A DNA stretch of 64,000 bases, from NCBI RefSeq assembly GCF_041248615.1, contig NZ_CP158426.1; one strand, written 5' to 3'. Below the pieces are notes generated by a model. That model worked only from the letters and a program-made list of their open reading frames with translations. It did not search any database and had not been told where the DNA came from. A program made the position numbers and the translations under genes. The stretch is from Escherichia coli (lineage in GTDB: Bacteria > Pseudomonadota > Gammaproteobacteria > Enterobacterales > Enterobacteriaceae). Within the stretch, counting starts at the first letter, position 1. Each line of letters starts with the position of its first letter. This document shows, one piece after another, positions 35,383-35,408 of this stretch.

Positions 35383-35408
35383 TATGCGTCAGATTTATGA
35401 CAGATTTA
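35383..35408 (-). promoter_or_regulatory. Pho box upstream of phoB
   Basis: minus-strand TTTTCATAAATCTGTCATAAATCTGACG with tandem TGTCATAAA-type repeats about 50-75 bp upstream of the phoB start. Confidence 0.8.

Follow-up and report, generated by a model that had tools for sequence, protein, structure and literature searches.

Putative native PhoB operators at the phoBR and phoA-psiF promoters of Escherichia coli isolate NRZ14408

Judging from nucleotide sequence comparisons, the stretch of DNA analyzed here (64,000 nucleotides, referred to as the window) belongs to the chromosome of E. coli NRZ14408, a natural isolate, and the Pho boxes located upstream of phoB and phoA are almost certainly its own PhoB operators, serving the phoBR and phoA-psiF promoters. 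Both boxes are already known textbook sites and there is nothing new in them. The whole window was identical (64000 of 64000 bases) to positions 4003666-4067665 of the NRZ14408 chromosome, NZ_LT599825.1, which was found using a 24-kb window query (100% match) and then compared over the full window. The window was also collinear with the chromosome of E. coli K-12 MG1655 in an inverted orientation (K-12 about 447066 down to 388419), with identities of 94-98% per aligned block and about 97.5% near phoB and phoA. Because of the identity to NRZ14408 and the collinearity with K-12, we regard the window as natural chromosome rather than a construct. The sequence-only reading had taken the two promoters as a positive control that the backbone is native E. 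coli regulatory DNA, and these comparisons bear it out. As a consequence of the inversion relative to K-12, the phoB and phoA promoters are found on the minus strand. The open reading frame listing placed phoR, phoB, phoA and psiF on this strand and sbcD, divergent from phoB, on the plus strand. The Pho genes are as follows.

33291-34586, minus strand: phoR coding sequence (sensor kinase), 431 amino acids, intact; NCBIfam NF008235, 890 bits
34644-35333, minus strand: phoB coding sequence (response regulator), 229 amino acids; NCBIfam NF007546, 540 bits against a cutoff of 471
48769-49089, minus strand: psiF coding sequence, following phoA on this strand; PsiF identical to that of K-12
49208-50623, minus strand: phoA coding sequence (alkaline phosphatase), GTG start, 471 amino acids, intact; NCBIfam NF007810, 896 bits

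PhoB, PhoR and PhoA all scored above their NCBIfam equivalog cutoffs. The phoR gene lies downstream of phoB on the same strand, and both partners of the cognate PhoB/PhoR two-component system are encoded in intact form. The amino acid sequence of PhoB, annotated as phoB in NZ_LT599825.1, is identical to that of K-12. PhoR differs from the K-12 protein by N230D and R342S, and PhoA by four substitutions (G202D, K210R, S267A and E381D).

Four strain-specific stretches break the collinearity of the window with K-12. A region of ~1.66 kb with a low GC content (37%), located between acpH and malZ (26481-28142), is absent from K-12; 1127 of the 5426 complete E. coli genomes carry it, each with one copy on the chromosome. 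It includes a coding sequence (26498-27955, minus strand) for a hypothetical protein of 485 amino acids with a lysine/glutamate-rich charged central segment, for which there was no match in Pfam, NCBIfam or PADLOC. Another low-GC (34%) insert absent from K-12, of ~2 kb, is located between yajO and pgpA (9985-11966); its coding sequence at 10215-11786 (plus strand) specifies a 523-amino acid pentapeptide-repeat protein (Pfam PF00805) whose similarity to PipB2 and PipB, type III effectors of Salmonella, is weak and below the threshold. The gene yajI, which codes for a DUF3251 lipoprotein and is intact in K-12, is interrupted by an IS200/IS605-family element (16346-18096) composed of insQ/TnpB (16389-17597) and a tnpA pseudogene (17605-18030). 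At 57614-62233, an IS3-family element (about 60589-61921), 95.5% identical to K-12 IS2A, divides a yaiT-like autotransporter gene, while yaiT of K-12 is disrupted by IS3B instead; the neighboring 59271-60588 stretch (about 1.3 kb) is without a K-12 counterpart in the compared region. Between iraP and ddlA, a hypothetical coding sequence of 67 amino acids (51166-51369, minus strand), for which no Pfam match was found, is annotated in the window and unannotated in MG1655.

The window was searched for Pho boxes in two ways. The consensus CTGTCATAWAWCTGTCAY, allowing up to three mismatches, produced three matches, overlapping or adjacent to each other and all at the phoB and phoA promoters, where 0.13 were expected; none of 100 shuffles gave three matches. 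An 18-bp weight matrix was then derived from 41 motifs listed in Table 2 of PMC3465305, leaving phoA and phoB out of the training set. Scanning the 64-kb window with this matrix ranked the phoA box first (20.2 bits) and the phoB box second (19.6 bits), followed by a site with 13.5 bits; among 200 locally shuffled windows the maximum was 19.5 bits. The Pho boxes that had been claimed upstream of both genes therefore exist, on the minus strand, as the top two weight-matrix sites. Each is a pair of CTGTCAT-like direct repeats of 7 bp with an A/T-rich spacer of 4 bp between them, so that the period is 11 bp, and each repeat has a TGTCA-type major-groove tract. Both boxes precede genes known to belong to the Pho regulon, at sites bound experimentally in K-12. 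The same scan found no hit of at least 11 bits between phoA and psiF, and thus no separate Pho-box-like site for psiF.

The distances to the start codons, which were said to be as expected, agreed with the K-12 ChIP-chip data: the box centers are at -72.5 (phoB), -71.5 (phoA) and 117.5 (sbcD), equal to those that Yang et al. 2012 list in their Table 2. In those experiments phoB and phoA were bound and induced, with log2 values of 8.5 and 6.1 (PMC3465305). A chance resemblance to the A/T-rich consensus, with no regulatory role, would draw on the abundance of similar sequences, since TGTCA-type pentamers are common (103 in the window), TGTCATAAA is found at three further places, and 13 weight-matrix hits of at least 11 bits were counted against about 8 expected. 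Such a coincidence is nevertheless extremely unlikely: the phoA and phoB sites stand 6 bits above all other sites in the window and also exceed every score in the 200 shuffles, and they are identical to, or one base off, experimentally bound K-12 sites at the same genes and the same distances.

The elements identified in the phoB promoter are listed next.

35397-35414, minus strand: classical 18-bp phoB Pho box, TTTTCATAAATCTGTCAT, exact string match; PhoB activation site
35382-35392, minus strand: degenerate third 11-bp repeat, CTGACGCATAA, directly downstream of the phoB Pho box
35381-35386, minus strand: inferred phoB -10 hexamer, CATAAT, 10 bp downstream of the 18-bp box
35370-35398, plus strand: PhoB autorepression site of the phoB promoter, exact 29-nucleotide match to the phoB-rp oligonucleotide AATGCGACGTCATTATGCGTCAGATTTAT

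Upstream of phoB the minus strand reads ...GAGC TTTTCATAAAT CTGTCATAAAT CTGACGCATAA TGACGTCGCATTAATG..., an arrangement of three tandem 11-bp repeats of which the third is degenerate. The repeats of the box, TTTTCAT-AAAT-CTGTCAT, have two mismatches to the 18-bp consensus, and addition of a 4-bp A/T tail produces the 22-bp site (35393-35414, minus strand). The center of the box is 72.5 bp upstream of the ATG (35333), and its distance to the start of sbcD is 117.5 bp. The box is followed by AAATCTGACG (10 bp) and then by CATAAT, the designation of which as -10 derives from the published repression oligonucleotide (PMC6194859) and from a 10-bp spacing to the box like that at phoA. That oligonucleotide, AATGCGA-CGTCA-TTATG-CGTCA-GATTTAT, corresponds exactly to the plus strand at 35370-35398 (PMC6194859), and it places two antisense CGTCA half-sites, with a 5-bp spacing, flanking the -10 region. 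Gao & Stock 2018 described the CGTCA-TTATG-CGTCA half-sites as weak, antisense and flanking the phoB -10 region (PMC6194859). The 115-bp phoB fragment used for EMSA in the same work (PMC6194859) matches 35339-35453 (minus strand) exactly, and the complete phoB-sbcD intergenic region was 100% identical to that of MG1655 (alignment of 209 columns). The promoter region was present in 5424 of 5426 complete E. coli genomes, 5050 of them with at least 99% identity.

The sequence-only reading had placed the phoB site at 35383-35408. The site is real, and its register was about 6 bp off, shifted downstream. This interval covers 12 of the 18 bp of the phoB box (CTGTCAT, the TAAA spacer and one T) and misses the TTTTCA core, while it runs over the third repeat, CTGACGCATAA, and four of the six bases of the -10 CATAAT. 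The third repeat had been read as the second one of the box. The interval also overlaps the PhoB autorepression site (35370-35398, plus strand). The best-fitting 18-mer for this interval, CTGTCATAAATCTGACGC (35386-35403), scored 11.7 bits, which is the background level. The existence of three tandem 11-bp repeats could be taken to mean that the activating pair is CTGTCATAAAT plus CTGACGCATAA (35382-35403) rather than the classical TTTTCATAAAT plus CTGTCATAAAT. However, we consider this shifted register very unlikely. The MEME motif under the K-12 phoB ChIP peak is TTTTCATAAATCTGTCAT (PMC3465305), the shifted 18-mer scored 11.7 bits as opposed to 19.6, the shifted register overlaps the -10 CATAAT rather than sitting 10 bp upstream of it, and the CGTCA of the third repeat was published as part of the antisense repression site (PMC6194859). 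The classical pair is thus preferred as the activation site at phoB.

The corresponding elements in the phoA promoter are the following.

50686-50703, minus strand: 18-bp phoA Pho box, CTGTCATAAAGCTGTCAC, exact string match; best weight-matrix site
50692, minus strand: single-base difference from K-12, C here and T in MG1655, found by alignment; first base of the downstream 7-bp repeat
50670-50675, minus strand: presumed phoA -10 hexamer, TATAGT, 10 bp (GGCCGAGACT) downstream of the box

TATAGT is taken by us as the -10 hexamer of phoA as a matter of established knowledge. The spacing between box and -10 is then 10 bp at both phoA and phoB, with the identities of the -10 hexamers coming from the literature or by inference. 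On the minus strand the region upstream of phoA reads ...CAG CTGTCATAAAG CTGTCACGGCC GAGACTTATAGTCGC..., and the repeats of the box, CTGTCAT-AAAG-CTGTCAC, have one mismatch to the 18-bp consensus. A GGCC extension completes the 22-bp site (50682-50703, minus strand). The center of the box is 71.5 bp upstream of the GTG (50623), and the interval given earlier for this promoter, 50684-50705, encloses the 18-bp box. The phoA promoter region was present in 5420 of the 5426 complete E. coli genomes, and both promoter regions were at least 95% identical in nearly all genomes carrying them (about 5420/5426).

Alignment of the iraP-phoA region with that of K-12 (117 aligned bases) showed no indels and one substitution, the one at 50692, so that the phoA box is CTGTCATAAAGcTGTCAC here versus CTGTCATAAAGtTGTCAC in K-12. 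To count the alleles, two 41-mers centered on the variant were used in megablast searches with a 28-base exact word, under which only the matching allele is found. The C allele of the window was in the minority, with 616 of 5426 complete E. coli genomes (about 11%), and the K-12 T allele was found in 4771 of 5426. Position 12 of the 18-bp motif is degenerate, with A, C and T occurring 14, 16 and 13 times among 43 distinct ChIP-derived PhoB motifs taken from Table 2 of Yang et al. 2012 (PMC3465305). In a simple log-odds weight matrix the C allele gained 0.4 bit over T, and a degenerate PHO-box design, NTKTMAYHWWHYNKTMAY, permits C or T at position 12 (PMC8601176). Considering the degenerate position, the natural allele, the 0.4-bit gain and a design that permits both bases, the T-to-C change, a common natural polymorphism, is most likely neutral. 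Nominally, the C allele shifts the downstream phoA repeat towards the consensus CTGTCA(C/T). It is possible, though unlikely, that this measurably raises the affinity for PhoB~P and advances the onset of alkaline phosphatase induction in the lineages that carry it; if so, the C allele would parallel, in natural populations, the affinity variants of the phoA promoter that Gao & Stock 2015 engineered.

The alignment to the K-12 promoters that had been proposed as a check gave an exact result for phoB (100% identity) and one mismatch inside the box for phoA. A mismatch to the reference promoters had been named as grounds for rejection, and the phoA substitution is literally such a mismatch. Yet we do not take the reading as refuted, because the substitution is a natural allele at a degenerate position and shifts the repeat towards the consensus.

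Since PphoA is widely used in expression vectors, an engineered or vector-derived copy of the phoA promoter would be another source of the sequence. The stretch CAGCTGTCATAAAGTTGTCACGGCCGAGACTTATAGTCGCTTTG served as the PphoA of a functional expression system controlled by phosphate (PMC8601176), and the phoA promoter string occurs in vector and primer sequences in the literature. Nonetheless, a vector origin is scarcely credible given the full chromosomal synteny ddlA-iraP-phoA-psiF-adrA-proC, the identity of the window to the chromosome of a natural isolate and the lack of flanking vector backbone. Moreover, searches with the phoA region of the window returned chromosomal locations in all but 3 of 5425 places, and all 616 matches of the window-allele 41-mer were chromosomal.

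A scan of species-representative genomes with the 20-mer CTGTCATAAAGYTGTCACGG gave 23 matches, none of them in Escherichia; the Escherichia representative genome may differ within the 20-mer. Twenty-one of the 23 (17 in Acinetobacter and 4 in other genera, namely Ruminococcus, Defluviitaleaceae, Bacillus and Enterococcus) share one homologous, coding-looking context. By eye (antisense ...DRDNFMTA...), we take this context to be a putative clpP, and the 20-mer is a chance occurrence there. In Pseudoduganella buxea (about 6182-6212 of its locus) a third repeat stands ahead of the 20-mer, TTGTCACGAAA CTGTCATAAAG CTGTCACGGCC, and the site looks like a genuine betaproteobacterial Pho box.

The mechanism by which these operators are expected to work was shown in K-12 and is extended to the window on account of sequence identity. 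Binding of PhoB~P and phoB-dependent induction by phosphate starvation were demonstrated with K-12 sequences (PMC3465305, PMC4447250, PMC6194859), and the window is identical to those sequences at phoB and different at one degenerate position at phoA. When phosphate is limiting, PhoR would phosphorylate PhoB, and a PhoB~P dimer would attach head-to-tail to the pair of 11-bp direct repeats, in each of which a CTGTCAT-like core of 7 bp is joined to an A/T-rich tail of 4 bp. TGTCA lies in the major groove, and the minor groove holds the A/T-rich tails (Blanco et al. 2002, summarized in PMC4447250 and PMC4415409). The repeats would replace the -35 element, 10 bp upstream of the -10, and PhoB would recruit sigma-70 RNA polymerase. 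At phoB the predicted outcome is positive autoregulation, to which the two weak antisense half-sites at the -10 would add autorepression at high levels of PhoB~P; weak PhoB binding around the -10 leads to this negative feedback in K-12 (PMC6194859). At phoA a box of lower affinity would drive alkaline phosphatase expression, the lower affinity being attributed to G/C pairs that occupy minor-groove positions. In K-12 these pairs result in lower affinity (Kd about 0.6 uM for phoA) and a later onset of induction (PMC4447250), and the G/C minor-groove positions, in AAAG and GGCC, are both kept in the window. The Pho boxes are of use only as a control, in which this part of the window comes out as native, unmodified regulatory DNA of E. 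coli and the PhoBR-phoA circuit as intact. They also illustrate that known operators can be located to within a few bases by reading the sequence alone. The phoA-box variant is a minor population-genetics footnote.

The E. coli K-12 phoBR promoter with its Pho box was reportedly described by Makino et al. in 1986/1988. All 189 bp of the K-12 phoB-sbcD intergenic region, including the box, the third repeat, the -10 and the repression site, are alike in the window. The phoBR system as a whole has the same PhoB and a promoter without differences, and departs from that of K-12 at N230D and R342S in PhoR. The phoA and phoB boxes share with the consensus CTGTCATA(A/T)A(T/A)CTGTCA(C/T) the pair of 7-bp repeats, the 11-bp period and the A/T-rich spacer. 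The upstream box of pstS, CTGTCATAAAACTGTCAT, reached 22.7 bits, above both the phoA and the phoB boxes found here. A tandem pair of boxes is present at pstS, a single box at phoA, and at phoB a single box accompanied by an additional, degenerate repeat. The K-12 phoA promoter has the same GGCC minor-groove extension, 10-bp spacer and TATAGT as the window. Its box, CTGTCATAAAGTTGTCAC (PMC3465305, PMC4447250), is like that of the window in its position at -71.5 from the GTG, its upstream repeat and its TGTCA tracts, and differs in having a T at box position 12, where the window has a C (50692).
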